IMG/VR virus record: IMGVR_UViG_2703718822_000010
Source of the DNA: a virus
Taxonomy: Duplodnaviria; Heunggongvirae; Uroviricota; Caudoviricetes
DNA length: 64,000 nt
Strand: one strand, 5' to 3'
Shown here: positions 1,012 through 57,200 of the stretch, piece by piece
How the letters are laid out: each line of letters begins with the position of its first letter
Numbering within the stretch: the first letter of the stretch is position 1
Program-made: the position numbers and the translations under genes
Notes under the pieces: generated by a model
Databases searched by the model: none
Told to the model about the DNA's origin: nothing
The model's input: the letters and a program-made list of their open reading frames with translations, nothing else

Positions 1012-3102
1012 ATGTATGTCATTGCAAAAGAACTGATTGGCGCGCCCGGAATGCCTGCTACAACAAAAGGTATTCGCCAGGCATTACAACGTTACGTACA
1101 AGGGAAAAGCTGTTGTTCCCGTCGTCGCTCAGGCTCTAAAGCAACTGAATACAGTATCGACTGTTTACCTGAAGTGACGCAGCAGGCATTACGTGAACGC
1201 TACGCCCTGCAACTGATGACGCAAAAAGCCGATGAATCACCGGCTCCGGTGGTGACAAAGGCCAGACGCTCGCCTGCCGTGGTTGATGCGGTGGAGGCAT
1301 ATCGCGGATCACCACAACTGATGGTTGAACGCCTTAATGCCCTGACTGAAAACCAGCGCCAGGTGGCTGATGCACGAATCGCGATCGTCAGCGAAGTGAT
1401 GAAAGTCGCGCAACAACCCGGTTTCAGCTGTGCGAAAGCTATCCGGTTTATCGTTGACAACCTGGCACGTTCGCAGCTGGACGAGCGCATTGTGGCAATG
1501 GTTGAGACGGCGAACGCCAAAAAGGGAAACAGCCGTGCGTTGAGTGAAATCACGCTGAAACGCTGGATTGCAGCCTTTAACAAGGCGCAGAACGCCGCCG
1601 AACGCCTGCTTTTGCTGGCACCGGGTAAGCGCCAGGAAATAAAAGCCGAAGATATTAACTGGCTGCCCGAATTTCTGGCGCAGTATCGCCAGTCAAACGG
1701 CCGACCAATGACCGAGGCCTACGAGGATTTTGTCGCTGAATGGCAGCACCGGCACGCTGATGAGCCTTATATGCTCGATATCATGCCGTCTTATGACACC
1801 ATTCGCCGCGCAATGAAGAAACTGCCGGAAGTGGTGAAACAAAAAGGCCGGGTGACCGGCAGTGAATATCGCCAGCTTGAGGGATTCACGCGCCGCGACT
1901 GGTCAAAAATGCCGGTGAATTATGTCTGGATTGGTGACGGTCACGGCATGAAGCTGAAATGCAGGCACCCGGTTCACGGGCGGCCATTTGCACCGGAAGT
2001 GACCTTTGTTATCGACGGTGGCACGCGCTTTGTGGTGGGCTGGAGCCTTGACCTGGCTGAAAATGTTTTCGCCGTAGCCGGTGCCATACAGCACGGTATT
2101 CGTAATCACGGCAAACCGTTTCTGTATTACTCGGATAACGGTTCCGGGGAAACCGCCGACATCCTGGATAAGGAAGTTGTGGGGATTCTGCCGCGACTGG
2201 GGATTAATCACCCGACAGGGATTGCCGGTAACCCGCAGGGACGGGGCATTATCGAACGGCTTAACCGCACATTACCGATGCGCATAGCCCGTAAATACCG
2301 CACCTATTTCGGGAAAGGTGCAGATCGCGAGACGTTACGTAAAACCAACCGCGATTTACGCTCGGCATTCAGTGCCCTGCAACAGGGCAAACGGCTGAAC
2401 GCCCGGCAGCAGTCAGCGATGCGTGATTTACCGTCCTGGGCTGAACTGATTGATGCCATTCGTGATGGTGTTGAGTGGTACAACAACCGGCCGCACGATG
2501 AATTACCCATAAAACCGAACGGCAAGCATTACAGCCCGGCGGAGTTCAGAAAAAAACGCCTGGCGGAAGAGGACACGGAAATTGAATGGCTGTCCGATGT
2601 TGAGCTGCGGGATATGTTCCGGCCGATGGTGGAACGCCCTGTAAGACGCTGTGAAATACGCTGGCTGAATAATATTTACTACGCTCCCGAGCTGCGTGAT
2701 GAGCATGGCCGCAAGGTGCTTATCAGCTATGACATTCATGATGCCGAACGAATTACCGTACGTCGCCTGGATGGCAGCGTGATTTGCGAGGCGGTATGGG
2801 GCGGCAATAAACGCGAAGCCTTCCCGGTCAGCGCGGAATACTACAAACAGCAGCAACGCCTTAAAGGCATGCGTAAACGCGCAGAGGAAAAAATCCGTGA
2901 TGCCGAGGATGAGGTGGTCAACGTGCTGGAGCACAAGCAGCAGGAGCCATGGCTGGAAAACATCTATCGCCCTGTGGGTAATGCGGTGATCGTTCAGCAA
3001 CCGGTCGCTGACGATGAACCTGATGAAGAATACGAGCGTAATTTCCAGCGGGGATTGCAGTTGCTGGAAGCGAAATTAAAAGAAAATGACCCGCTGGCCT
3101 GA
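1012..3102 (+). CDS. MuA-like DDE transposase
   Basis: 696 aa directly after ner; WIGDGHG and YSDNGSGETA blocks resemble the Mu A catalytic DDE region; distant from Mu A itself. Confidence 0.8.
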   Translation: MYVIAKELIGAPGMPATTKGIRQALQRYVQGKSCCSRRRSGSKATEYSIDCLPEVTQQALRERYALQLMTQKADESPAPVVTKARRSPAVVDAVEAYRGSPQLMVERLNALTENQRQVADARIAIVSEVMKVAQQPGFSCAKAIRFIVDNLARSQLDERIVAMVETANAKKGNSRALSEITLKRWIAAFNKAQNAAERLLLLAPGKRQEIKAEDINWLPEFLAQYRQSNGRPMTEAYEDFVAEWQHRHADEPYMLDIMPSYDTIRRAMKKLPEVVKQKGRVTGSEYRQLEGFTRRDWSKMPVNYVWIGDGHGMKLKCRHPVHGRPFAPEVTFVIDGGTRFVVGWSLDLAENVFAVAGAIQHGIRNHGKPFLYYSDNGSGETADILDKEVVGILPRLGINHPTGIAGNPQGRGIIERLNRTLPMRIARKYRTYFGKGADRETLRKTNRDLRSAFSALQQGKRLNARQQSAMRDLPSWAELIDAIRDGVEWYNNRPHDELPIKPNGKHYSPAEFRKKRLAEEDTEIEWLSDVELRDMFRPMVERPVRRCEIRWLNNIYYAPELRDEHGRKVLISYDIHDAERITVRRLDGSVICEAVWGGNKREAFPVSAEYYKQQQRLKGMRKRAEEKIRDAEDEVVNVLEHKQQEPWLENIYRPVGNAVIVQQPVADDEPDEEYERNFQRGLQLLEAKLKENDPLA

Positions 3103-3173: not shown

Positions 3174-4106
3174 ATGACTGATATTAACGATGTAATCAAG
3201 ACCATTGATGAACTTATTGATGGCGGCGTACTGACGCAGTATGCCATCGCCAGAGAGGCGGGAATTTCCGACGGCACATTATCGGCTTTCCGTAAGGGAA
3301 AATATAAAGGCGATAACGCTGCTGTGGCTGCTTCCCTGCGTTCCTGGTATGAGAACTGGAATAAACAAAGCGCACTGCCGGAACCGCCGCAGTTTGTGGA
3401 AACGCAGACAGTCCAGGAGCTGCGCGCACTGTTTCAGGCGGTTCGTCTGATGGGCTGTATTAACGTTATTGTGGGCGTACCGGGTGTGGGTAAAACGGCC
3501 ACTGCCCGTAATTACTGCCAGGAGCAACCAAACACCTGGATGATCACCCTGTCACCCGCGCACTCCAGCGTCACGGAGTGTCTGCTGGAGCTGGCCGATG
3601 CGCTGGGGATTGATTACACCCGCGCGAACAAAGGGGCATTATCCCGCGCCATCCGCCGTCGCCTGATGGGAACGCGTGGACTGGTGATTGTGGATGAGGC
3701 GGATCATCTTGGTATTGACGGTCTGGAGCAACTCCGGGCAATTCAGGACGCCACGGGGATCGGGATGGTGCTTATTGGTAACCCGCGCGGATTGTTTAAA
3801 GGTGGACGCCGCGCCTTTGATGATTTATCGCGCCTGTTCAGCCGTCTTGCCCGTACAAAACAACTTCGCAAGGCCAAAAAGGCGGATGTGCTGGCCATTG
3901 CCAGGGCATGGGGTATCAGTGGTGAGGCCGAGCTGGCCGTCATGCAGGCTATCGCTGAAAAGCCGGGAGCGTTACGCGTTCTGACACATACGCTTAACCA
4001 GGCGTGGCTCACCGCCAGCGGTGAAGGTGCGGCGCTGACAGAAAAACATATTAATGCGGCCTTTAAAGAGGTTTATACCAACCCTGAATTACTCTCACAG
4101 GTGTGA
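3174..4106 (+). CDS. MuB-like transposition ATPase
   Basis: 310 aa with Walker A GVPGVGKT; follows the transposase as in Mu. Confidence 0.8.
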   Translation: MTDINDVIKTIDELIDGGVLTQYAIAREAGISDGTLSAFRKGKYKGDNAAVAASLRSWYENWNKQSALPEPPQFVETQTVQELRALFQAVRLMGCINVIVGVPGVGKTATARNYCQEQPNTWMITLSPAHSSVTECLLELADALGIDYTRANKGALSRAIRRRLMGTRGLVIVDEADHLGIDGLEQLRAIQDATGIGMVLIGNPRGLFKGGRRAFDDLSRLFSRLARTKQLRKAKKADVLAIARAWGISGEAELAVMQAIAEKPGALRVLTHTLNQAWLTASGEGAALTEKHINAAFKEVYTNPELLSQV

Positions 4107-17936: not shown

Positions 17937-17940
17937 CGGT

Positions 17941-18024
17941 CAGTGGCGGGGGTCGAACCCGCATACATGATCCACCCGGAGGCAGGCACCGACTTTACCA
18001 GTTAAGCGTACACTGACCGCCTGT
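17941..18024 (-). other. tRNA-like element (degenerate)
   Basis: Minus-strand RNA has a 7-bp acceptor stem GTCAGTG/CACTGAC, U8-A9, a D-loop with GG and a T-arm GCGGG-TTCGACC-CCCGC, but no canonical anticodon stem and no encoded CCA. Confidence 0.3.
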
Positions 18025-18707: not shown

Positions 18708-19832
18708 ATGAAGACGAAAAACACGCCCAAACTTGCTTATGCCATTCTGAATGCCATCAGCCTGTCCGCAGACGGGGACGGTGACTGGTGTCAGATCATG
18801 CCAGCCGGTCGGGTAAAGGCCCGTGACGGTCGCCCGGAAAAACCGGCCGAGGGCTGGCTGATCAACCATGCAGCCGTTGAGCGCATGGTCTCCCGTGTTG
18901 TGGCGCTCAATCAGCCGGTGAAAATTGACTACAACCACCAGACCCTGATTGAGGGACATCCGGCACCGGCTGCCGGTTTTGTGATGGCCTCACCGGAGAA
19001 TTTTCGCTTCAGTGAAGAGCGAGGTTTCGAGGTGCGCCCGAAGTGGAACCCTCCGGCCCTTGAACATCTGCGTAATAACGAATTCCCCTGGTTTTCACCG
19101 GTGATTGGCTATGACGAGAGCACCGGCGAACCTGTCGAACTTCGGATGCTGGCTATTACCGGTGACCCCGGTCTGACCGGCATGAATCCTGTCGCCGCAC
19201 TGTCGGCGGATGACCTTTATAACGCCTTAAACCCTCCTTTAAAGGATACCTCCATGAATGAGCAATTACGCCAGTTGCTGACGGCGCTCGGTCTGACCGT
19301 GGCTGACGGTGACGAATTTACGCCGGAGCTGGGCACGGCAGCGCTGTCTGCCCTCACCGGGATCAAAACCCGTGCGGATGCACACGACAACCTGAAAACA
19401 CAGGTCGCCAGTCTGTCGGCAGAGCTGGAAACTGCAAAAGGCACACCGGCTGGCGGCAGTATTGACCTGACGAAATACGTGCCCGTTGAAACGTATAACG
19501 CCCTGCGTACCGAATACGTTGCGCTGTCGGCGCAGCACGGCAGCACCACGCTGGAGCAGTTGCTGGACAAGGCCGAGTCCGAAGGACGCATCTTCAAAAG
19601 TGAACGCGGCTATCTGGAACAACTGGGCGGGCAGATTGGCGTGGCGGCACTTTCTGCACAGCTTGACGCCCGCCAGCCGGTTGCGGCCCTGACCGGCCTT
19701 CAGACCGACACCGTGACCGTGCCGGATAAAAAGACTGCCACCGCTGTGCTGTCGGCTGAAGATATCGCGGCCGCCAAACTGCTGGGTAAAACCGAAGCCG
19801 AGTTCCTGAAAATGAAAGAGGAAATGCAATAA
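18708..19832 (+). CDS. Head protease/scaffold (Mu I/gp32-like)
   Basis: 374 aa immediately upstream of the major capsid gene with overlapping stop/start. Confidence 0.7.
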   Translation: MKTKNTPKLAYAILNAISLSADGDGDWCQIMPAGRVKARDGRPEKPAEGWLINHAAVERMVSRVVALNQPVKIDYNHQTLIEGHPAPAAGFVMASPENFRFSEERGFEVRPKWNPPALEHLRNNEFPWFSPVIGYDESTGEPVELRMLAITGDPGLTGMNPVAALSADDLYNALNPPLKDTSMNEQLRQLLTALGLTVADGDEFTPELGTAALSALTGIKTRADAHDNLKTQVASLSAELETAKGTPAGGSIDLTKYVPVETYNALRTEYVALSAQHGSTTLEQLLDKAESEGRIFKSERGYLEQLGGQIGVAALSAQLDARQPVAALTGLQTDTVTVPDKKTATAVLSAEDIAAAKLLGKTEAEFLKMKEEMQ

Positions 19833-34130: not shown

Positions 34131-34691
34131 ATGCTGATTGGCTATATACGCGTATCAACAAATGACCAGAACACCGGTTTACAAAGAAATGCGCTGGAAT
34201 GTGCAGGATGTGAGCAGATTTTTGAAGACAAAATGAGTGGTAAAACGACACAGCGGCCGGGACTGAAGCGGGCACTGAAGAAACTAAAACCCGGTGACAC
34301 GCTGATGGTCTGGAAACTGGACAGGCTGGGGCGCAGTATGCGCCACCTTGTTGCGCTGACAGATGAATTACAGCAACAGGGGATAAATTTTCGTAGTCTT
34401 ACTGACAACATTGATACGTCAACCCCCATGGGGCGCTTCTTTTTTCACATAATGGGTGCGCTGGCAGAAATGGAGCGTGAATTAATTGTCGAACGGACAC
34501 GGGCTGGTCTTGCAGCTGCCCGTGAAAGGGGACGAACCGGCGGCAGACCCCGCCGTCTCACGCAGGAACAATACGAGCAGGTCGGGCGTTTACTGGCCGG
34601 GGGTGTCAGTCGAAGACAGGTGGCACTTATTTTTGATATCGGTCTTTCAACCCTTTATCGTTATTATCCTGCGAGCGTTTCGGAAAAATAA
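34131..34691 (+). CDS. gin: Gin/Hin/Cin-family serine DNA invertase
   Basis: 186 aa; N-terminal MLIGYIRVSTNDQ with catalytic Ser and C-terminal HTH. Confidence 0.9.
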   Translation: MLIGYIRVSTNDQNTGLQRNALECAGCEQIFEDKMSGKTTQRPGLKRALKKLKPGDTLMVWKLDRLGRSMRHLVALTDELQQQGINFRSLTDNIDTSTPMGRFFFHIMGALAEMERELIVERTRAGLAAARERGRTGGRPRRLTQEQYEQVGRLLAGGVSRRQVALIFDIGLSTLYRYYPASVSEK

Positions 34692-34790
34692 GACGCTCTC
34701 TTTGTTGGGCCTTTACTGAATTAACGCAAAATGGCGTTTATCGGTCTGTGGATATGATAATTCAGTTTATTCAGGAACAGGCTGATTATT

Positions 34791-36800
34791 ATGACGTCCA
34801 AATGGGTTCAACTATCATCAATGCCCGGAAACTTTACTGTTAAAGTTTCCGGTGGTACAGCGGCATTTCTTGAGGCTCCCTTTCCTCCGGCCGAAACAAA
34901 AGGAGGAATGACATTTGCTGACTGTCTCATCAGTTTTAATACACGGGATTGCCTGTGGGTAAGGCCAGTATCCGGTGATCCGAGTGTGGAAATTACCGGA
35001 GCGGGTATTGGTGCGGTCATTCCGTTAAGTGCTGATGTTGCCGGTACTGCTGAACCGTCAGACTGGGATAATGCTGAAACACATACCCGTCCGTCAGGAA
35101 ATGAAACTGCTTCCAGCTCCCCTTCCTGGTATTACGTGGTGGTTCTTGCTGGTCAGTCAAACGGTATGGCTTACGGTGAAGGTCTGCCACTGCCGGAGAC
35201 ATATGACCGCCCCGAACCGCGTATTATGCAGTTAGCCCGTCGCAGTACAGTCACGCCGGGAGGTAAAGCCTGTCAGTATAACGACATCATTCTGGCCGAC
35301 CACTGTCTGCATGATGTGCAGGATATGAGTGGAAAAAATCACCCGAAAGCGGATGTGGCTAAAGGGCAATATGGCACCGTGGGTCAGGGGCTTCACATTG
35401 CCAAAAAACTGCTGCCGTTTATTCCGGCAGATGCGGGGATTCTGCTGGTTCCCTGCTGCCGTGGTGGTTCTGCATTCACGGCGGGTGCTGACGGCACGTA
35501 CAGTGACAGCACGGGTGCTTCAGAGGACTCAGCCCGCTGGGGTGTGGATAAGCCGCTGTATAAGGACTTAATCAGCCGGACAAAAGCGGCACTGGCGAAG
35601 AACCCGAAAAACCGCCTGCTTGCTGTGGTGTGGATGCAGGGCGAGTTTGATATTGATGCGAAGCCGACGGAGCATTCTGCGCTGTTTCTGGCGATGGTGG
35701 AAAAATTCCGCGCAGACCTGGCTGAACAGGCGGAACAGTGTACCGGTGGCAGTGCTGCTGGCGTTCCGTGGATTTGTGGCGATACCACGTATTTCTGGAA
35801 ACAGAAAAATGAACCAGCATACCAGGCAATCTATGGCGGCTACAAAAACAAAACAGATAAAAACATTCATTTCGTTCCATTAATGACAGATGAAAATGGC
35901 GTGAATGTACCCACCAACAATCCGGCAGAAGACCCGGATATTGAATCCATTGGTTATTACGGCTCAACGTGGCGTAACAGTGCCGCTACCTGGACATCTG
36001 CGGACCGGGCCAGCCATTTCAGTGCCTGGGCGCGCCGGGGTATTATTTCTGACCGTCTGGCCACGGCTGTTCTGACTCATGCAGGGCGAACCACAGTAAA
36101 AGCCGATGTTCCATCTTCTGAAACTGAAGCAGTAACCACAACACTGCTGTCTTACCGTGTCAGTGAGTCAGAAGGAAATCTGAAAGCCCAGGGCTGGGAG
36201 CCGGCTGGCGGTAAAGCTGAAATTATCAGTGATGCAGGAGGCACAGGTGGTAAGGCAATGAAACTGACCAAGGAAACAGGTAAATCATCCTGGTATCTGG
36301 ATCATGATGCCGGTACTGGTGCTGAACTGCTGAAAAATGGTGGTTTAATCAGTTGTCGTTTTAAAGTACCTGGCGACCTGGTGGCAAACCAGTATGTCAT
36401 GGCGCTTTACTGGCCGGTTTCCTCTCTGCCGCAGGGTGTCACCCTGACAGGGGATGCAGGGAATAATCTGCTGGCATCGTTCTACATCCAGACAGACGCA
36501 AAAGACCTGAATGTGATGTACCACAATGCAAAAGTGGCAACAAATAACCAGAAACTGGGAACCTTTGGTGCATTTGATAATGAATGGCATACGCTGGCCT
36601 TCCGTTTTGCAGGAAATAACAGCCTTCAGGTTATTCCGGTTATTGATGGTCAGGATGGTGCCGCGTTTACCCTGACGCAGTCACCAGTAGGAACTTTCCC
36701 GGTGGACAAACTCCGCGTAACGGATATCACCAAAAATGCAACTTACCCGGTGCTGATTGACAGCATTGTGGTGGAAGTGAAAAAAGCGGTAACAGAATAA
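34791..36800 (+). CDS. NanS-p-like sialate O-acetylesterase (SGNH/SASA domain) with C-terminal beta-rich domain
   Basis: 669 aa; VVVLAGQSNGMAYGEG motif characteristic of the SASA esterase family. Confidence 0.55.
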   Translation: MTSKWVQLSSMPGNFTVKVSGGTAAFLEAPFPPAETKGGMTFADCLISFNTRDCLWVRPVSGDPSVEITGAGIGAVIPLSADVAGTAEPSDWDNAETHTRPSGNETASSSPSWYYVVVLAGQSNGMAYGEGLPLPETYDRPEPRIMQLARRSTVTPGGKACQYNDIILADHCLHDVQDMSGKNHPKADVAKGQYGTVGQGLHIAKKLLPFIPADAGILLVPCCRGGSAFTAGADGTYSDSTGASEDSARWGVDKPLYKDLISRTKAALAKNPKNRLLAVVWMQGEFDIDAKPTEHSALFLAMVEKFRADLAEQAEQCTGGSAAGVPWICGDTTYFWKQKNEPAYQAIYGGYKNKTDKNIHFVPLMTDENGVNVPTNNPAEDPDIESIGYYGSTWRNSAATWTSADRASHFSAWARRGIISDRLATAVLTHAGRTTVKADVPSSETEAVTTTLLSYRVSESEGNLKAQGWEPAGGKAEIISDAGGTGGKAMKLTKETGKSSWYLDHDAGTGAELLKNGGLISCRFKVPGDLVANQYVMALYWPVSSLPQGVTLTGDAGNNLLASFYIQTDAKDLNVMYHNAKVATNNQKLGTFGAFDNEWHTLAFRFAGNNSLQVIPVIDGQDGAAFTLTQSPVGTFPVDKLRVTDITKNATYPVLIDSIVVEVKKAVTE

Positions 36801-36946
36801 AAAAATCCCGCCGGTCATGATATGGCTGGCGGGAGCTACCTAACCCATAAAGGAAAATAAAAATACTCCCGAAGGAGTGGTTATCAGTCGCTTCGATGTT
36901 TTTACCCGATAACGAATTATGTAGTCAATATCAAAGGTAAGGTTAT

Positions 36947-37129
36947 ATGACATTCGTTCATACAATGCTGCTTTATTTCTGCGCTGTGGTCAGTGCGTTA
37001 TATCTGGTGAGCGGCGGTTATAAGGTCATCAGAAATTATATTCGCCGTAAAATTGATGATGCGGCAGCTGAAAAACTCAGTAAAACAGCACAGGCACCGT
37101 CATCCCCAAACGACCCGACCCCGCTCTGA
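36947..37129 (+). CDS. Small membrane protein
   Basis: 60 aa with an N-terminal hydrophobic helix. Confidence 0.35.
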   Translation: MTFVHTMLLYFCAVVSALYLVSGGYKVIRNYIRRKIDDAAAEKLSKTAQAPSSPNDPTPL

Positions 37130-37164
37130 TAACGGGGCAATATACCTGCAAAAGGAGAATATTC

Positions 37165-37410
37165 ATGCCAGAGATTAAAGGCACGGTTACTGAAGAGCTT
37201 GTCAAACAGGCACTTTATTCTGAAGAAGTGAACCGCGTGCTGAAGGCGCAGGTTCGCAAGGATTTTGAGGCACAAATCGACGCATATGTTGATGAAGTGC
37301 TGGCCCGAATGGTTGGCCGTTCTCCGGCTGAAAACAGCACGGAAAATGATCCTCAACCCGTAGAGCAACCAGAGCCGGTTCAGCCCGGAACTGACGGTAC
37401 TATGATGTAA
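37165..37410 (+). CDS. Hypothetical small acidic protein
   Basis: 81 aa with upstream AAGGAG Shine-Dalgarno. Confidence 0.4.
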   Translation: MPEIKGTVTEELVKQALYSEEVNRVLKAQVRKDFEAQIDAYVDEVLARMVGRSPAENSTENDPQPVEQPEPVQPGTDGTMM

Positions 37411-37418
37411 CAATACCG

Positions 37419-37450
37419 ACCGGCAGGTTTCCCTGCCGGGTGAGTTTGTT
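37419..37450 (+). terminator. Rho-independent terminator candidate
   Basis: CGGCAGG-TTTC-CCTGCCG hairpin followed by a T-rich tract. Confidence 0.4.
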
Positions 37451-37499
37451 AATGCACGTTTTGTGTATTTTCCCTCCTGGGAGAACAGGCAGGACATAT

Positions 37500-38029
37500 C
37501 AGCATCCTGAAACAGGAAGCATTTTTGGGTTTGTATGTCTTGCCATTTTGAGATCGAGAACGGCGATAGATGAGCTGTAAGGGAGTCTTACAGGCAGGGC
37601 AAACAGGCTCTTTCATCCATGATAAAGATCTCCTTTTTATGCATCTCTGCTTTACAGGAGACTGGGGAATATCATAGGATACGCCACGAGCTCGAAGTAA
37701 AGCATTGATGCAAAATTGTCTAAATCGGCCCAGAATAGTTCGCGCTATCTGGGTCGCTCTTTATGTATGTAGTATCCCATTGATTTGAAACATACTACAT
37801 ATACGCGCGATCCTACCTTCACTATATAAAAAGTCAATAAAATGATCATTTTATGATCGTTTTCACCACCTAACTCTTCGTTTTCTTTAAGTAAATAATC
37901 ACCTACCTGAATCATTGTTGATGACTTTTCAATCTATTTGTTGTATCAATTAAACAAATCGAATCGATCGTTTTTGTCGATCGATTGCATGAGAAAGGCA
38001 TCAACAACAAAGCAGGAGGTTATGCGGCC
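37500..38029 (+). promoter_or_regulatory. com-mom upstream regulatory region with GATC cluster and palindrome
   Basis: GATC sites near 37552, 37627, 37809, 37843, 37855, 37966 and 37979; perfect inverted repeat ATCGATCG-N7-CGATCGAT at 37962-37984. Confidence 0.45.
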
Positions 38030-38230
38030 ATGTATCGAAACATACGGTGCCGACACTGCAATAAGCTACTGGCACGGGCCAGTTTCAGTTATCTGGAAGT
38101 AAAATGTCCGCGCTGTAAAACCCTCAATCAAATCACATCTCCGAGCGCCACAGAGCACCCCACATACACAAGGAAATCCTGTCGTGGGGAACAGAAAGCA
38201 AGTCACATCCCGAATCATCAGCACGCCTGA
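38030..38230 (+). CDS. com: Com zinc-finger translational activator of mom
   Basis: [10 protein letters not shown]...KCPRCK matches Mu Com IRCKNCNKLL...RCPRCK as recalled; AGGAGG Shine-Dalgarno; overlaps the next gene. Confidence 0.8.
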
Positions 38231-38921
38231 ACTTATTCGCTATAACGACAATATCGTTGGTTATGGCTCCCGTGAGTTGCGGGTTGAGACAATAAGTTGC
38301 TGGCTGGCCAGACTGGTCATCGTCAATAAACATTACAGCCACCGTTTCGTAAATAACTCCTACCTTCATCTGGGCATATTTTCAGAACGGGAACTTGTTG
38401 GCGTAATGCAATGGGGTTACGCCCTTAACCCAAACAGTGGTGCACGCGTCGTAACGGGTACGCAGAACCGAGAATATATGGAGCTTAACCGGCTATGGCT
38501 GCATGACTGTATGCCGAGAAACTCCGAATCAAGGGCAATCAGTTACGCGCTCAAGCTAATCAGGCAGCTTTATCCGCAGGTACAGTGGGTTCAGTCGTTT
38601 GCAGATGAGCGTTGTGGCTGTCTTGGTGTCGTGTATCAGGCAAGCAATTTTGATTATGTAGGCAGCCATGAATCAATATTCTATGAACTTGATGGCGAGT
38701 GGTATCACGAGATTTGCAGGAATGCCATTAAACGAGGCGGACAACGAGGTGAACATCTGAGGGCTAATATTGACAGAGCCAATGTTCATAAGTTCCGACA
38801 GTTTCGTTACATCCGGTTTCTGAACAAGAGGGCCAAAAAACGCCTCAACACAAAGCAATTCAAAGTCCAGCCTTACCCAAAACCACAAACAGTTAAAACT
38901 GGTTTGAAAGAGAGTGAATGA
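38184..38921 (+). CDS. mom: Mom-like DNA modification protein
   Basis: 245-aa ORF with GTG start overlapping com, the arrangement of the Mu mom operon; identity inferred from context. Confidence 0.6.
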
Positions 38922-51201: not shown

Positions 51202-51234
51202 TTCACGATATTCCATTAATACCATTTCCTGATG

Positions 51235-51260
51235 CCCGGCCATTGTGCCGGGTTTTTTTA
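51235..51260 (+). terminator. Rho-independent terminator or attenuator upstream of the giant ORF
   Basis: CCCGGC-CATTGT-GCCGGG hairpin followed by T7. Confidence 0.6.
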
Positions 51261-51270
51261 TGGAGTCTGT

Positions 51271-54200
51271 ATGGCCTATTCAGAGGAACAGCGTCCTGAG
51301 GCGCAACTCGGTAACCAGAATCGTAACAGCCTGAACATTCAGCAACCCGGCGAAACTGACAGCTATGAAGCATTTTTCTCTGATCCGAATCGCTGGAAGG
51401 ATAACAGTACGTCGTTCAGCCTGGGCGATGTATTGCCAACAATGGGTAAAGGTTTCGCCCAGTCCGTCCGGGGAACAGGGGAAATGGCCCGTGGACTCGG
51501 TGATGCGATGATTCAGAGCCCGGTAAAAACAGGGGCGCGTATTTTAAATGAGTTCAGCCGTATGGGGCTGCCGGGTGTCACAACTGTGCAGGATATTTTT
51601 GCCGGTGGCAGCAGGGGGGCTGATGAGGTCATCGATACCCTGCCTGATGGCAAAAACGCGGTTACTGATACTGTCGGTAAAGGTCTGAAGGCAACCGGTA
51701 AGGCTGTCAGTGATGGTGCTGAAGCCACTGATGAATGGCTGACCGGTAAGATGTCGCCGGGTGCAGTTCGTGCGCTGAATACGCCGATGACCGAAGGCTA
51801 TGATGATTCTGCGGTCTGGGTGGCGAAGGGTGTAAACCTGATTGGTGCGCTTGTACCTGATATGGTTGCTGGCGGTGTGGCTAAAAAGGTGGGTGATGTC
51901 ACACTGCGAAAAATGCTGACCGCCGGGCTGGAGAAAAAATACATCGCGGCAGGGATGCAGCCGGAAAGAGCCACGGCACTGGCAGCAGAAGCTGTCGATA
52001 AAAAAATGCCGGATTTATTCCAGGCGGGCCTGATCACCCATTCCACAGCCAGTGCACAGGGGCAGAGTGCAATGGCGGCAGCAGATGCTGTTCTTAATGC
52101 GGATTACTCTGAGCTGGCGCAGTCACCGAAATTTCAGCAGACGTTTTTGTCCATTGACGCCGACCCGCAGCACGCACAGCTTACTGATCGCCAGAAAATG
52201 GATCTGGCAAAAGAGCGTGTTGCCGATGAGGTGCGCGCGCAGCTGGCAACCGATCCTGAATTGCTGGCTGTGAATGCCATGGCGGCAAAACTGGGTGACG
52301 CACAACTGTTTAATCTGGTGACACGAGGCACAGCGAAGACCGTTAAAAGCGGCATTGTCAGAAATGCCACGGAACAGGGGGCGATTAATGCGGCGCAGGG
52401 CGGCTATTCACGCTATCAGGAAAACACGGCATTGCGTGAGACCGCCGGAATGGATGTGTCACCGTGGGAGGGCGTGGCTGACGCAACGATCGAAGGTGCA
52501 GCCTTTGGTGCTGCGATGGGGGCTCCATCCGGTGCGGTTGCCGGATATCGTGGCAGACGTCAGGCCGCAGAAGAAACCGCCATGCGTGATGCTGAAACCG
52601 TGCAGCAGGACGACGCAGCCCCGCAACCAGAATCTGTTGATCCGGTGGCGCAGCAGCGTGAATCCATGCAGGGCATGAATCGCGAGCAGCTTCTGGAGCA
52701 GTATGCTGATGCGGATATGGCAACAGAGGGTGACGCATCCGCAGCTCATCGCCGGGAAGCTGCCAGCCAGTTGTTGAATGAACTGGACGAACAGGCGAAG
52801 CGACAGGCTGTGATGAATGAGCTGAAGGCGAAGCCGCGTTCTGAACTGCTTGAGGAATACCGCAGACTCAGCCAGAAAGAGGGGCGCACCGAGACTGAAG
52901 AACAACAGTTTCAGGCAATACGAGAAGTCATTCGCCCACAACAGGAAGTGACGCCGGAAGCACAGTCACAGCCTGAAAATGCGGAGGATGGTAACGGGAG
53001 CATTTACCCGACGGTGCGGTTCCGGGACCCGAATGAAGTCCGCATTGAAATTAACGGGAATGGTGCGTCCAGACCAGCGGAACGCATTGAAAAGGTGCGC
53101 CCGGACAACCGTTATTTCACGGATGAGAAAAGCGCCATGGGGAGTGATGTTTTCCGTAATGCCGCCGCTACCGGCCTGAAACCGTCCGTAGTGAAGAAAG
53201 GCGAGAATCAGTATGCCGTTGAAATGGATAATCCTGCGTTCTCTGAAGATGTGGCAACGGAAACCATTAACACCCTGGCTGACGGAGAGCGTATTGCTGA
53301 TGCTGACCCGATGGAGCAGCCCGCGTTCATGCGTGACCCACGATTCCGTGGTTTCACGGGGGATGATACGGAGGTACAGGCCCGCCTTGCCCGTGGCAAC
53401 GTGCCGACGGCAGAGGAGCTTGTACGTTCACAGATGGCTGAAGGTGATGCCGGTCCGACAGCACAGGAGTTAACTGAGCGTCCACGCCTGCCCGCTCCCG
53501 GCGATATTCATCCCGGACAGGGATATCCGTTACCGGGAGAGGTGGCGCGTACGCCGGATGAGAATCAGGCAGGACGTGGTGGTCGTTTTACCACAACCGG
53601 TGAGGTTAAGGGCCAGAGTTTCCAGAAAGGACAAGCTCCGGCACCGGAAAACGCCGCTGGTCGCCAGGGGGAAACACTCGAGGGTGAAATGGTTCGTCGT
53701 GGTCTGCCGTCACCGGATGCGCAGAACGCGACAGCACCGGTACGTGAAGGGCTACCGGCTCCTGACATTGCGCGTAATGTTCGTATGCCTCAGCCTGAAT
53801 CACTTCCCCGCACTGTACGGGACTCACTGCCTGAGCTTGCACAGCAGGCAGAAGTACGCCGACAGGCCGGAGGAAATCGTGACATCCCGCAGCCTGAGAC
53901 AATCGCACCTGAATCTGAAACAACTGTCTCTACTGACAGGGAAGCTACCGTGCGCGGAGGTGAAGTCAGGGGCAAAAAAATTGAAGACTTTGGCGAGGAA
54001 ATTAAAGGGGCAGCCAAACACCGTTATGCACAGCTTGCTGAAACACTGGGTAAAACGCTGGAAGACAGGGATTATGCCACGCAGCCGCTGAGCAAACTGT
54101 TCCCGAAACCGGACTACGCAAAACTGGCGAACGAAGGTGCCGATGCTGATACCCTGGCAATGATAGCGCTGTATCGTAGCGATATTCCGGCGAAGACGAA

Positions 54201-57200
54201 ACACAATACGGCAGGCTGGGGGGAGAGCATAAAAAAAGTACGACACAGTGTATCGGAAATGCTGAACGGAACGGTCAGCGCGAAACGCCTCGCAGAATGG
54301 ATGGAAGGCAGAATGCCCTCCCGTTACGCGGACACCTGGCAACTGTTACGCACTCTGCCACCCTCACAGATGGACAGAGCTTCTGCTTATCGGGTGGTAT
54401 CGGGTGTGTATCAGGCGGCAGGAGGGAAGCGTTACGATCCGCCACAGAAACTTTATTCACTGCGCAATAAGGACAATAAGGGGAGTAACCTCTTTTTCTC
54501 GGAAAGCAGGGATGAATTACTGGCAAAGGCGAAAGTCTGGTTTGCAGAGCAGGAGGAAAAATCACAGGCGAAAGGTGATGAAAAAACAGCACCGTCACCG
54601 GATGACAAAATCCGCTTTGACGTTTACCGGAATACCCGCAGTGGCGATATTTTTATCGCTTACGGTAAAAACAAAATGCGGGTGAGAGGTGGCTTTAAGT
54701 CAGCCAGTGATGCGCGTAAGTACATTGATTCACATCGTGATGAGCTTGTTCGTCATGTGAAGGAGATGCGGGAGATTTCGCGTGAGGAGCAGCGCAACGC
54801 CACCAACCGCGACCGTACCGGACCAGAACGCCGCAAGGGGAATGTTTCACCGGAGCAGTTCAGTGATGCGTTTGGTTTCCGTGGTGTGCAGTTTGGTAAT
54901 TATGTGGAAGGTCCGCGTCGTCAGGCTGATTTGAACCGGGCTTATGACTCGCTGCATGACCTTGCGGAAGTACTGAATGTACCGACAAAAGCGCTTTCCC
55001 TGAACGGTCGTCTTGGCCTGGCATTTGGTGCCCGTGGTAAGGGTAAGGCGGCAGCACACTATGAGCCGGGTGAGGCGGCAATCAACCTGACAAAAGGTAA
55101 CGGACCGGGTGCGCTGGCGCACGAATGGTTCCATTCTCTGGATAATTATTTTGGTCGTTATGACGTTTCCACTGACGGGAAAATTACGTCAGGTGGCGAC
55201 TTTATGACGGAAGCACAGCGTGCCAGGCGCGTATTTAAAGACGGCAGGTATGTTGATGCTGAATATCCGGTACGTCAGGAGGTTTACGACGCTTTTAAAG
55301 GTGTGATTCAGGCCATTAAAAACAGTGACATGCCGCGTCGTTCAGCGCTTCTTGATGAGGTGCGCTCAAAACCGTACTGGTCAACGGATGTTGAAATGGC
55401 GGCACGTGCCTTTGAGCGTTATGTTCAGGATAAGGCGCGTATGGCTGGCGTGGAGAATGATTATCTGGTCAATATCCGTAAGGCACCTGAGCACAACACA
55501 GATAACACCTACGCTTATCCGACGAATGCGGAACTGGATGGCGGTATTCGTGAGGCATTCGATCACCTGTTCCGCACCCTGAAAACCCGTGAGACGGACA
55601 AGGGCGTTGCGTTTTATTCCCGTAAGGGCGTTACCCGCACACCTGAAGGTAATCTCATTTCGGATGTTAACCGTAGTGCGGAAGCCAAAGGCAGCCCGGT
55701 CCCGCAGGTTGAAGCGGTTGCCCGTGGCGTGATGAGCGGCATTAAGGACAGTGACCTGAAGGTCCGTGTGGTGAAGTCACAGAAAGAGGCTGAAGCGCTG
55801 GCGGGTGAATCGTTCGACGGTTACGGCAGGGTGCACGCATTCTATCGTCCGGATAAACGAGAAATTGTCCTGGTGGCGGATAACATCCCTGACGGGCGGA
55901 CCGTACGCGAGAAGTTGCGTCACGAGATTATCCACCATGCCATGGAGCATGTTGTCACGCCAGCGGAATATCAGACGATTATTAAGACCGTGCTGAAAAC
56001 CCGTGACAGTGATAACGCCACCATCCGTGAAGCCTGGCGTAAGGTTGATGCGTCTTATGGTAAGGAATCACCGGAAGTGCAGGCGGGTGAATTTCTGGCA
56101 CATATGGCGGAGAAACAGCCGAATAAATTCGTGGCGGCATGGGAGCGTGTTGTTGCCCTGGTCAAAGGGGTACTGCGTCGTACGGGGTTACTGAAGCCGA
56201 CGGAACTGAACGATATCAGACTTGTTCGCGAGACCATCCGTACGTTAGGCCAGCGTGTGCGGGAAGGTTACACGCCGCGTGAGGATGGCGCGGACGCATC
56301 GTCTCAGTACTCCCGTAGTGGTAAACCTGATCCGTTCAAAGTGCCGGAAGGTGAGGGCGAGCGTTATCGTGATGACCTTGCCAGAATGATGAAGTCGTTA
56401 CGTTCTGGTGCAATGACTGCAAACATCGGGCGTACGCCGCCGGTATTGCGCCACCTTGGCGCACCAGATTTGCCGCTGGTTATCTCCCGCGACACTGTGC
56501 GGAAGGCAACCAATGGCGTGAAACATGTGGTGCCGATGGATGTTATCGAGAGACTTCCTGAGCTGATGCACGATCCGGATGCAATTTACCGTTCCGCGAC
56601 AGAAAGAAATGCGGTTGTGATGCTGCTTGATGCCGTGGATAAAAATGGTGATCCGGTGGTGTCGGCAGTGCACATGAAGGCAACAGATAAACGAATAGAA
56701 ATTAACAAGGTGGCTTCTGTATATGGAACAAAAGGAGGGATGAACAAAGCTAATAGCCTGGATAAAGCAGGTTTGACGCTTTACCGGAAGGAAAAATTAA
56801 GCCGCGATAACCCTCAGTACAGTGGGCTTCAATTGCCCAAAGAGGAGCGTTCTTATCGCGGCTCTGTAGATAAAATACTCTATCCTGAAGATATTCGCAA
56901 GGGGCCGTATTACTCCCGTACCAGCAGTCTGACACCGGAAGAGACAATTGCATCGCGTTTTGTGCGCCAGATGCAGGATAAATTCCAGGTGCTGAAAGCT
57001 GTTCAGGAGAATATCCGTAAAACTGGCGGAAAAATAGACGACAGTAACAACGCTTATATGGCGGAAGAACTCTTCCACGGGAAGGCGGAAAACGACCTGA
57101 ACGTGATGAAGGAGCGCTACGTTCAGCCACTGGCTAAATTACTGGCGGACTACAAAATTGCGCAGGCCGATCTGGATGAGTATCTCTACGCCCGTCACGC

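Follow-up and report, generated by a model that had tools for sequence, protein, structure and literature searches.

In phage Mu only a short interval separates the DNA invertase gene gin from com and mom, and the question raised by the stretch of DNA analysed here (64,000 nucleotides of a tailed virus, IMG/VR record IMGVR_UViG_2703718822_000010; hereafter the window, to which all coordinates refer) is what a gene for a 669-aa protein is doing at this place in a Mu-like prophage. A preliminary description had proposed a NanS-p-like sialate O-acetylesterase carried there as cargo. Our analysis indicates that the product of the open reading frame (ORF) is very probably a functional sialate 9-O-acetylesterase with three domains, a member of the NanS-p family, and that the ORF is the first gene of a conserved accessory cassette in prophages of the type of Sakai Sp18. 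The gene and its parts are the following.

34791..36800, plus strand: Mu-type NanS-p-family sialate O-acetylesterase gene, 669 aa, predicted from ORF call, Pfam, PDB match and Foldseek; homologue of Sakai ECs_4993
34791..35024, plus strand: N-terminal domain, residues 1-78, all-beta with six strands, no Pfam family, standing where DUF1737 would be
35025..35126, plus strand: linker 1, residues 79-112, disordered (predicted local distance difference test score, pLDDT, below 50), ending in ETASSSPS
35127..36080, plus strand: SASA/SGNH catalytic domain, residues 113-430, assigned from the 3PT5 match, invariant columns and residue check
36081..36140, plus strand: linker 2, residues 431-450, 10 aa shorter than in the 679-aa Sakai-type allele
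36141..36797, plus strand: C-terminal lectin-like jelly-roll domain (DUF6645), assigned from the 6YP6 match, Pfam and residues

The ORF was recovered exactly as first described, with the GQSN-type SGNH/SASA signature VVVLAGQSNGMAYGEG in its translation, and the Pfam search that had been suggested for SASA returned PF03629 at residues 116-312 (E 6e-12) together with DUF6645 (PF20350) at residues 514-632 (E 4e-70). In PHROGs, residues 62-667 correspond to phrog_143, function unknown. Sequence searches of the PDB matched residues 104-428 with NanS/YjhS of E. coli (3PT5, E 2e-118) and residues 449-664 with phage phi24B NanS-p in its C-terminal domain (6YP6, E 3e-112), in support of the proposed family. 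The same two structures were the top Foldseek matches of the AlphaFold2 model of the protein (template modelling scores on the target of 0.95 for 6YP6 and 0.73 for 3PT5), and the SGNH alpha/beta/alpha fold was recovered with 3PT5 (E 9e-24) as well as with 2APJ and dog SIAE (8F9P). Since the full-length model was of moderate quality (pLDDT 63) with active-site loops of low confidence, it was left out of considerations of active-site geometry; the assignment of the SGNH fold is certain from the sequence identity to 3PT5. Structure-based alignment gave 58% identity between the catalytic domain and NanS, and 79% between the C-terminal domain and 6YP6. The beta-rich C-terminal domain noticed earlier is a jelly-roll of the DUF6645 type.

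The catalytic motifs are intact and invariant in 16 homologues. Block I (GQSN) comprises G121, Q122, S123 and N124, with Ser123 as nucleophile and Gln122 in the oxyanion hole; Block III (QGE) comprises Q283, G284 and E285; and the RASH block comprises R406, A407, S408 and the catalytic His409, without Asp, as in NanS. These residues show the catalytic core to be a SASA-type SGNH hydrolase with a Ser123-His409 dyad and the 'inverted' oxyanion hole (Gln122/QGE283-285) typical of NanS. The preliminary description had expected a conserved Ser-His-Asp triad; the fold, the Ser and the His are there, and the expectation was slightly off in its Asp, because E. coli NanS itself is without the Block V Asp (PMC9487903). 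PMC9487903 names the His-bearing block (RASH/RSSH) Block V, and PMC10462455 names it block IV. In the C-terminal domain, four aromatic residues with a proposed role in sugar binding (Y535, Y540, Y565 and F636) are kept, and these too are invariant in the 16 homologues. They correspond, with a constant offset of +25, to Y510, Y515, Y540 and F611 of vb_24B_21, which have been proposed in the literature as sugar-binding.

Compared with E. coli NanS, the catalytic domain is homologous over 325 residues, but the 3PT5 chain (337 aa) aligns to residues 104-428 only, and the window protein adds an N-terminal and a C-terminal domain and has no signal peptide. NanS is periplasmic and is encoded in the nanCMS operon. 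Neither a signal peptide nor a transmembrane segment was found in the 669-aa protein, and Pfam and PHROGs gave no tail-fibre or tailspike attachment motif. The ratio of nonsynonymous to synonymous substitution rates was 0.08-0.12 in the SASA domain and 0.13-0.26 in the C-terminal domain; the gene is intact and under selection. Linker 2 differs between alleles by a Ser/Pro/Glu-rich segment of 10 aa (SETEAPVPSP), present in the 679-aa Sakai-type allele and missing from the 669-aa allele. Both lengths are abundant in databases (at least 1000 contigs have the identical 669-aa protein, P0011, and the P0045 cluster counts 1046 members).

With the NanS-p proteins of Shiga toxin (Stx) phages (933W L0105/z1466 and phi24B vb_24B_21/gp84) the window protein shares identical SASA motifs and the same C-terminal lectin domain. 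A comparison with these proteins had been suggested beforehand, and it revealed a feature that the preliminary description had missed. In canonical NanS-p a DUF1737 domain occupies residues 3-53, for example in 933W (PMC10462455), whereas the 669-aa protein gave no Pfam match to PF08410 (DUF1737). From residue ~113 onwards the window protein is ~80% identical to NanS-p of an Stx2a phage and of a P2-like prophage; before it there is no relationship, residues 1-112 being unalignable with DUF1737-type proteins (13-20% identity over forced columns). The folds differ as well, with six beta strands in the Mu-type N-terminal domain against a helix and three strands in DUF1737. By these comparisons DUF1737 is swapped for an unrelated all-beta domain of ~78 aa and a disordered linker, a feature previously undescribed.

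The new domain is real and under strong purifying selection. Between two Mu-type lineages the proportion of nonsynonymous differences (pN) is 0.22-0.24 and that of synonymous differences (pS) is saturated at 0.77-0.78, and within its own lineage pN/pS is 0-0.27; identity between Mu-type lineages in linker 1 is only 18-32%. The domain was modelled with a confident fold, and a fold search with it returned generic beta-barrel matches only, with no known decoration or tail-adaptor fold among them. In an exhaustive HMMER search of 1.84 billion representatives it was always found ahead of SASA esterases, never alone or on other enzymes. One copy from Shigella sonnei is 59% identical. Another, 29% identical, comes from a Mu-like prophage of Salmonella enterica, where it lies downstream of gin with two small ORFs between and the contig ending inside the gene. 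On a short contig of 2 kb, a further copy follows an invertase gene immediately. Wherever flanks could be read, in E. coli, Shigella and Salmonella, these were always Mu-like prophage. The domain was not found in 185,579 species-representative genomes; among the isolated phages of INPHARED it was absent save for two Stx-prophage records with a nested Mu-like phage, and a scan of viral contigs with the Salmonella-type domain gave no matches. One HMMER match (nine stretches, 35% identity) to P0005, a repeat protein of 1445 aa rich in Ala, Gly and Val, was rejected as compositional, since it had no passing stretches in Pfam hits and fell in the low-complexity part of the query. The short-read copies P0001-P0004, P0008 and P0009 all end just after AGQSN, because the unique Mu-type 5' part there meets the multi-copy SASA repeat; the Mu-type variant is therefore systematically fragmented and under-annotated in draft genomes.

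The site between gin and com-mom was confirmed, including the two small ORFs at 36947-37410, which encode DUF1378 and DUF826 proteins. The neighbours of the esterase gene are as follows.

34131..34691, plus strand: gin-type serine DNA invertase (Pfam Resolvase and HTH_7; phrog_125, DNA invertase; 74.5% DNA identity to Mu gin)
34692..34790, plus strand: spacer of 99 bp between gin and the esterase gene, with no convincing sigma-70 promoter or intrinsic terminator
36947..37129, plus strand: second cassette gene, small DUF1378 protein (Pfam E 1e-38) with one N-terminal transmembrane helix by hydropathy
37165..37410, plus strand: third cassette gene, small DUF826 protein (Pfam E 3e-15)
37449..37915, minus strand: frameshifted homologue of Sakai ECs_4996 (no Pfam family; phrog_26524)
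37955..38029, plus strand: GATC-rich region directly upstream of com, compared with Mu 35660-35790
38030..38230, plus strand: com, Zn-ribbon translational activator of mom (Pfam Zn_ribbon_Com; start at 38030 mapped from RefSeq annotation)
38184..38921, plus strand: mom, adenine modification enzyme (Pfam Mom, E 2.5e-77; 71% DNA identity to Mu mom)

The backbone order at the right end of phage Mu (G segment, gin, Pmom, com, mom) is the same as in the window, and in both a GATC-rich region precedes com. In Mu, however, the gap between gin and com is only 94 bp and holds Pmom, whereas here it is ~3.3 kb with four intercalated genes. The GATC-rich region corresponds in position to the Dam-regulated Pmom region of Mu and is probably its functional equivalent; as it stays directly upstream of com, the inserted block begins after the stop codon of gin and lies ahead of the region equivalent to Pmom. 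The order esterase-DUF1378-DUF826 also follows stx2AB in an Stx2a phage, so that in this respect the window gene resembles the prophage-borne NanS-p genes in E. coli that produce Shiga toxin (STEC). The two differ in carrier (lambdoid against a Mu-type transposable myovirus) and in place, the Stx-phage gene lying between stx and the holin gene in a Q-dependent late operon and the window gene between gin and com-mom.

A Mu late-promoter (C-box) motif was not recognised by eye in the upstream regions. As the 99-bp spacer holds neither a convincing promoter nor a convincing terminator, read-through from gin is plausible, and the esterase gene may be transcribed together with gin. Its ATG at 34791 is preceded by a weak Shine-Dalgarno sequence (AGG at about -10). 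Between the esterase and DUF1378 genes, at 36800-36900, there are two terminator-like sites (hairpin plus T-run) facing the minus strand, one with CCCGCCGG...CTGGCGGG after an A-run and the other with ACTCCTTCGGGAGT followed by ATTTTTATTT; these could block antisense transcription into the esterase gene.

The carrier is a Mu-type prophage spanning the window from ~1 to 39048. Gene identities were read from colinear RefSeq annotations, and the parts that delimit it are listed here.

10-723: repressor-like ORF with weak HTH matches only
1012-3102: MuA, from colinear RefSeq annotations
3174-4106: MuB, from colinear RefSeq annotations
39048..39049: right end of the Mu-like prophage; four genomes are identical up to CGCCGCGCTATA and then have different flanks

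After MuB come a Mor/C-type regulator gene, lysis genes, Mu-type genes for the head, the sheath, the tube, the tape measure and the baseplate, and a tail-fibre segment that can be inverted; the major head protein is encoded at 19832-20779. The transposition genes, regulators, virion genes, gin, com-mom and variable flanks place the element, as judged from its gene content, among the Mu-like transposable phages of the Sp18 type. It is colinear gene for gene with Sp18 of E. coli O157:H7 Sakai (ECs_4943-ECs_4998), where ECs_4992 is the invertase, ECs_4993 the 679-aa esterase (annotated 'hypothetical protein') and ECs_4994/4995, ECs_4996, com and mom follow. Sp18 is reported as predicted intact, transposable and variably located. 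The window element differs from it in the esterase linker 2, in the frameshift of the ECs_4996 homologue and in its insertion site, Sp18 being in sorM and the window element in the tail-fibre gene of another prophage. The ECs_4996 homologue is intact in Sakai (154 aa) and frameshifted in the window, CFSAN027343 and AUSMDU00014361. The preliminary description was right in taking the carrier to be Mu-like, although as a distinct vehicle it is not special to the window: this is the standard right end of Sp18-type prophages.

The tail-fibre gene in the right flank belongs to a prophage of the 933W/phi24B type, and the Mu-like phage is nested inside it; such nesting has been reported for STEC (PMC10132054; records LC727881 and LC727895). 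The flanking prophage at 39049-60000 is of the 933W/phi24B short-tailed type, with tail fibres and an internal virion protein. At the junction, the ORF 38914-40137 reads through from the Mu end into the interrupted fibre gene, which goes on in frame, and joins the two in a chimera. A long ORF of the flanking prophage (51232-59655, plus strand, 2807 aa) carries LPD38, LPD5 and LPD1 ('large polyvalent protein') domains and MuF_C. In prophages of the Mu-like type found here, RefSeq annotates a 'tRNA-OTHER' between the gene for head morphogenesis and that for virion morphogenesis (locus L001, 4981-5060; locus L019, 23205-23284); its equivalent in the window is at ~17940-18020 on the minus strand, and ARAGORN finds no tRNA anywhere in the window.

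A look at the same locus in other Mu-like prophages, as had been suggested, showed the locus order to be kept in Sakai Sp18, CFSAN027343, AUSMDU00014361 and a second full-length lineage, which has its gene at this place too in S. sonnei and E. coli Mu-like prophages. The esterase of this second lineage is 676-691 aa long, 64-67% identical and without DUF1737. DUF1378 and DUF826 come after it, and beyond them lies either com-mom or com with a C5 DNA methylase. The methylase (PF00145) stands instead of mom in the related prophages L023-L025 (E. coli) and L021/L022 (S. sonnei); only L025 had a Zn_ribbon_Com ORF called upstream of the methylase, and in the S. sonnei copies L021/L022 no gin gene was called between the fibre chaperone gene and the esterase gene.

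DNA homology to the lambdoid and P2-type nanS-p genes starts abruptly at 35129, at the SSSP|SWYY junction, which is the boundary between linker and SASA domain. The window SASA domain is 78-92% identical to DUF1737-type genes and 69-81% to other Mu-type lineages, and for the C-terminal domain the corresponding values are 78-100% and 56-73%. The number of synonymous substitutions per synonymous site (dS) in SASA is 0.52 to a P2-like-type gene against 1.6-2.3 to the other Mu-type lineage, whereas the N-terminal domain is common to Mu-type genes only. These comparisons show the gene to be a mosaic, a Mu-like-specific N-terminal domain and linker being joined at the linker/SASA boundary to exchanged SASA and C-terminal parts. 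As the 3' parts are closer to DUF1737-type genes and the N-terminal domain is of Mu type only, the 3' parts are exchanged among types of prophage that reside together, and the linker is where the breakpoint falls.

One protein, P0078, with a DUF1737 N-terminus and a 3' half 100% identical to that of the window gene, was set aside as proof of a recent recombinant, since it rests on one short-read contig, which begins only 608 nt before the gene, and an assembly chimera is possible. On this contig (L026; GCA_012426925.1, AASMET010000054) Mu-type DUF1378, DUF826, com and mom come after the gene; P0078 is either a true recombinant of lambdoid and Mu-like phages, which would imply prophage-prophage rearrangement, or a short-read assembly chimera. 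In another record, L003 (CP061233.1, plasmid-labelled), a DUF1737-type nanS-p with DUF1378 lies between the lysis and tail genes of a P2-like prophage, so that at least three phage architectures carry the cassette (lambdoid, P2-like and Mu-like).

For the small genes of the cassette the relations are different. DUF1378 is 53% identical to the ORF after the Stx2a-phage nanS-p and 74-88% identical to other Mu-like lineages, and for DUF826 the identity is 38% with the ORF of the Stx2a phage and 72% with other Mu-like lineages. The position of the trio is also unchanged in Mu-like lineages that have reached saturation at synonymous sites with respect to the window lineage. Because DUF1378 and DUF826 are far more diverged from the Stx2a-phage ORFs than among Mu-type lineages, the comparison speaks for a long residence of the three-gene cassette in the Mu-like clade and against a recent capture. 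A recent one-off capture of the esterase as cargo does not fit.

The element and its cassette are common, and among STEC the element is ordinary and widespread. Among 5426 complete E. coli genomes, this MuA type was present at 80% coverage or more in 233 (95-100% identity), the Mu-specific 5' part of the esterase gene, searched as DNA, in 205 (246 places, up to 4 per genome), and at least 80% of the 6-kb block from gin to mom in 167. Full-length proteins of 669-691 aa with the same N-terminus occur on thousands of contigs, and NCBI names the exact 669-aa protein 'sialate O-acetylesterase' or 'DUF6645 domain-containing protein'. In a literature search no paper was seen to join nanS-p with Mu-like phages or to cite ECs4993, although a mention in Rangel 2016, Saile 2016 or Rangarajan 2011 is possible. 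The result is accordingly a modest refinement: the Sp18-type element is common and already sequenced and its protein is automatically annotated, while the Mu-lineage variant of NanS-p is, as far as could be seen, undescribed.

As to function, all NanS-p alleles of EDL933 and O104:H4 are active esterases that support growth on 5-N-acetyl-9-O-acetylneuraminic acid (Neu5,9Ac2) and deacetylate mucin glycans (reviewed in PMC8065619). From the ~80% identity to active alleles the same chemistry, and with it esterase activity of the window protein, is inferred with high confidence. The enzyme, perhaps transcribed with gin, would remove the 9-O-acetyl group from Neu5,9Ac2 and mucin glycans through Ser123 and His409, with the lectin domain targeting glycans. 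Since the protein has no signal peptide or transmembrane segment, it would have to be released by lysis or travel on the virion, and it would meet its substrate only after phage-induced lysis or on the particle; the O-acetylated sialic acid would then be made usable by the Nan pathway of the lysogen population. Several points weigh against this interpretation. A consensus promoter scan found fewer promoter-like sites than in shuffled controls and none convincingly driving the esterase gene. SASA enzymes also act on other O-acetylated glycans, so the substrate could differ. The position of the gene is unlike the Q/pR'-driven late operon of Stx phages, and regulation as in those phages cannot be transferred to it. 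Finally, NanS-p of phi24B is a processed virion decoration protein (preprint 10.64898/2026.04.10.717836), which puts in question a pure 'nutritional conversion' model for the whole family.

This last point leads to a first alternative, which we hold to be possible rather than likely, that the esterase is mainly a virion component, with the Mu-type N-terminal domain as a particle anchor (head or tail) substituting for DUF1737; that the esterase and the lectin domain would be displayed on the virion, to let it adhere to mucus or penetrate O-acetylated glycans, is put forward with the same reserve. In phi24B, gp84 is among the most abundant virion proteins, and its DUF1737, absent from the window protein, forms a hexamer that plugs the capsid at the hexon centre (10.64898/2026.04.10.717836). 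The Mu-type gene swaps exactly this module and keeps a long flexible linker, and the replacement domain is strongly conserved, which would suit an anchor. So would its occurrence in Mu-like prophages wherever flanks are readable, its absence from the species-representative genomes, and the position of the gene next to the tail-fibre and invertase region. The end of linker 1 (ASSSPS) superficially resembles the SISSP motif of phi24B gp84, which undergoes autoprocessing at SSP-containing linker motifs according to the same preprint. On the other hand, DUF1737-type NanS-p occurs in a 933W-type podovirus and in a P2-like myovirus, so that the anchor is not obviously matched to the capsid; the persistence of the N-terminal module has a trivial explanation, as recombination cannot replace it where there is no upstream flanking homology; no known decoration or tail-adaptor fold was recognised; and no isolated INPHARED phage has the gene apart from the two Stx-prophage records mentioned above. 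A carbohydrate-binding module would fit the architecture equally well. It is thus only tentatively that NanS-p-type esterases are viewed as modular virion-display enzymes, with DUF1737 (for phi24B-type and possibly other capsids) and the Mu-type beta domain as naturally swapped anchors.

The second alternative, to which we give similarly limited credence, takes the N-terminal domain to be such an extra carbohydrate-binding module, the product being a soluble, lysis-released mucin-glycan esterase with two glycan-binding domains; it is likewise doubtful whether the difference from DUF1737 would then reflect substrate targeting and not phage type. A small jelly-roll/cupin-like beta domain is joined here by a disordered Ser/Thr/Pro-containing linker to a carbohydrate esterase, and this is the classical arrangement of a carbohydrate-binding module. 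The fusion of the domain to SASA esterases only also agrees with this role. Virion anchor, extra carbohydrate-binding module and oligomerisation module are all retained as candidate roles of the domain.

A third alternative is that the esterase acts on a bacterial surface polysaccharide (O-acetylated O-antigen, capsule or colanic acid) and not on host sialic acids, aiding adsorption or blocking superinfection. The gene adjoins the host-range (G-segment) region, and many phage tail enzymes de-O-acetylate surface glycans. The possibility has been raised for NanS-p in a review (PMC8065619). It is nevertheless improbable, as the catalytic domain shares its 58% identity with NanS, whose preferred substrate is 9-O-acetyl Neu5Ac, the NanS-p enzymes to which it is so close deacetylate mucin sialic acids (PMC8065619), and an attachment motif of tail fibres or tailspikes is lacking.

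It is scarcely credible that the N-terminal extension comes from faulty ORF calling or is a remnant in decay, and that the real product consists of SASA and the C-terminal domain. The weak Shine-Dalgarno sequence and searches with the N-terminal segment returning 'partial' proteins only would speak for it, but those entries are short-read contigs breaking at the multi-copy SASA repeat, Ser123 needs a start at or before M40, which has almost no Shine-Dalgarno spacing, and the domain is constrained, folds confidently and heads full-length proteins on thousands of contigs.

The reading as a functional NanS-p-family sialate O-acetylesterase in an old Mu-like cassette bears on how this enzyme family is understood. 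Discussion of NanS-p has dealt almost only with the cargo of lambdoid (Stx) prophages, as a means for enterohaemorrhagic E. coli to grow on O-acetylated mucin sialic acids. The same cassette is a near-constant part of a transposable Mu-type prophage found in ~4% of complete E. coli genomes, with up to 4 copies each, and these Mu-type copies are an uncounted source of esterase in STEC, moving by transposition and often into other prophages. As DUF1737 of phi24B is a capsid plug, the replaced N-terminus becomes the interesting feature and may be an alternative particle anchor. The contrast between DUF1737 and the Mu-type N-terminal domain is a natural experiment that could decide if the N-terminal module anchors the enzyme to the virion, and hence if the enzyme serves the phage or the host; Sp18-type phages being reported as predicted intact, virion proteomics is feasible. 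If the modular anchor proves true, the esterase would serve the phage, through retention in mucus or access to receptors, at least as much as the nutrition of the lysogen.

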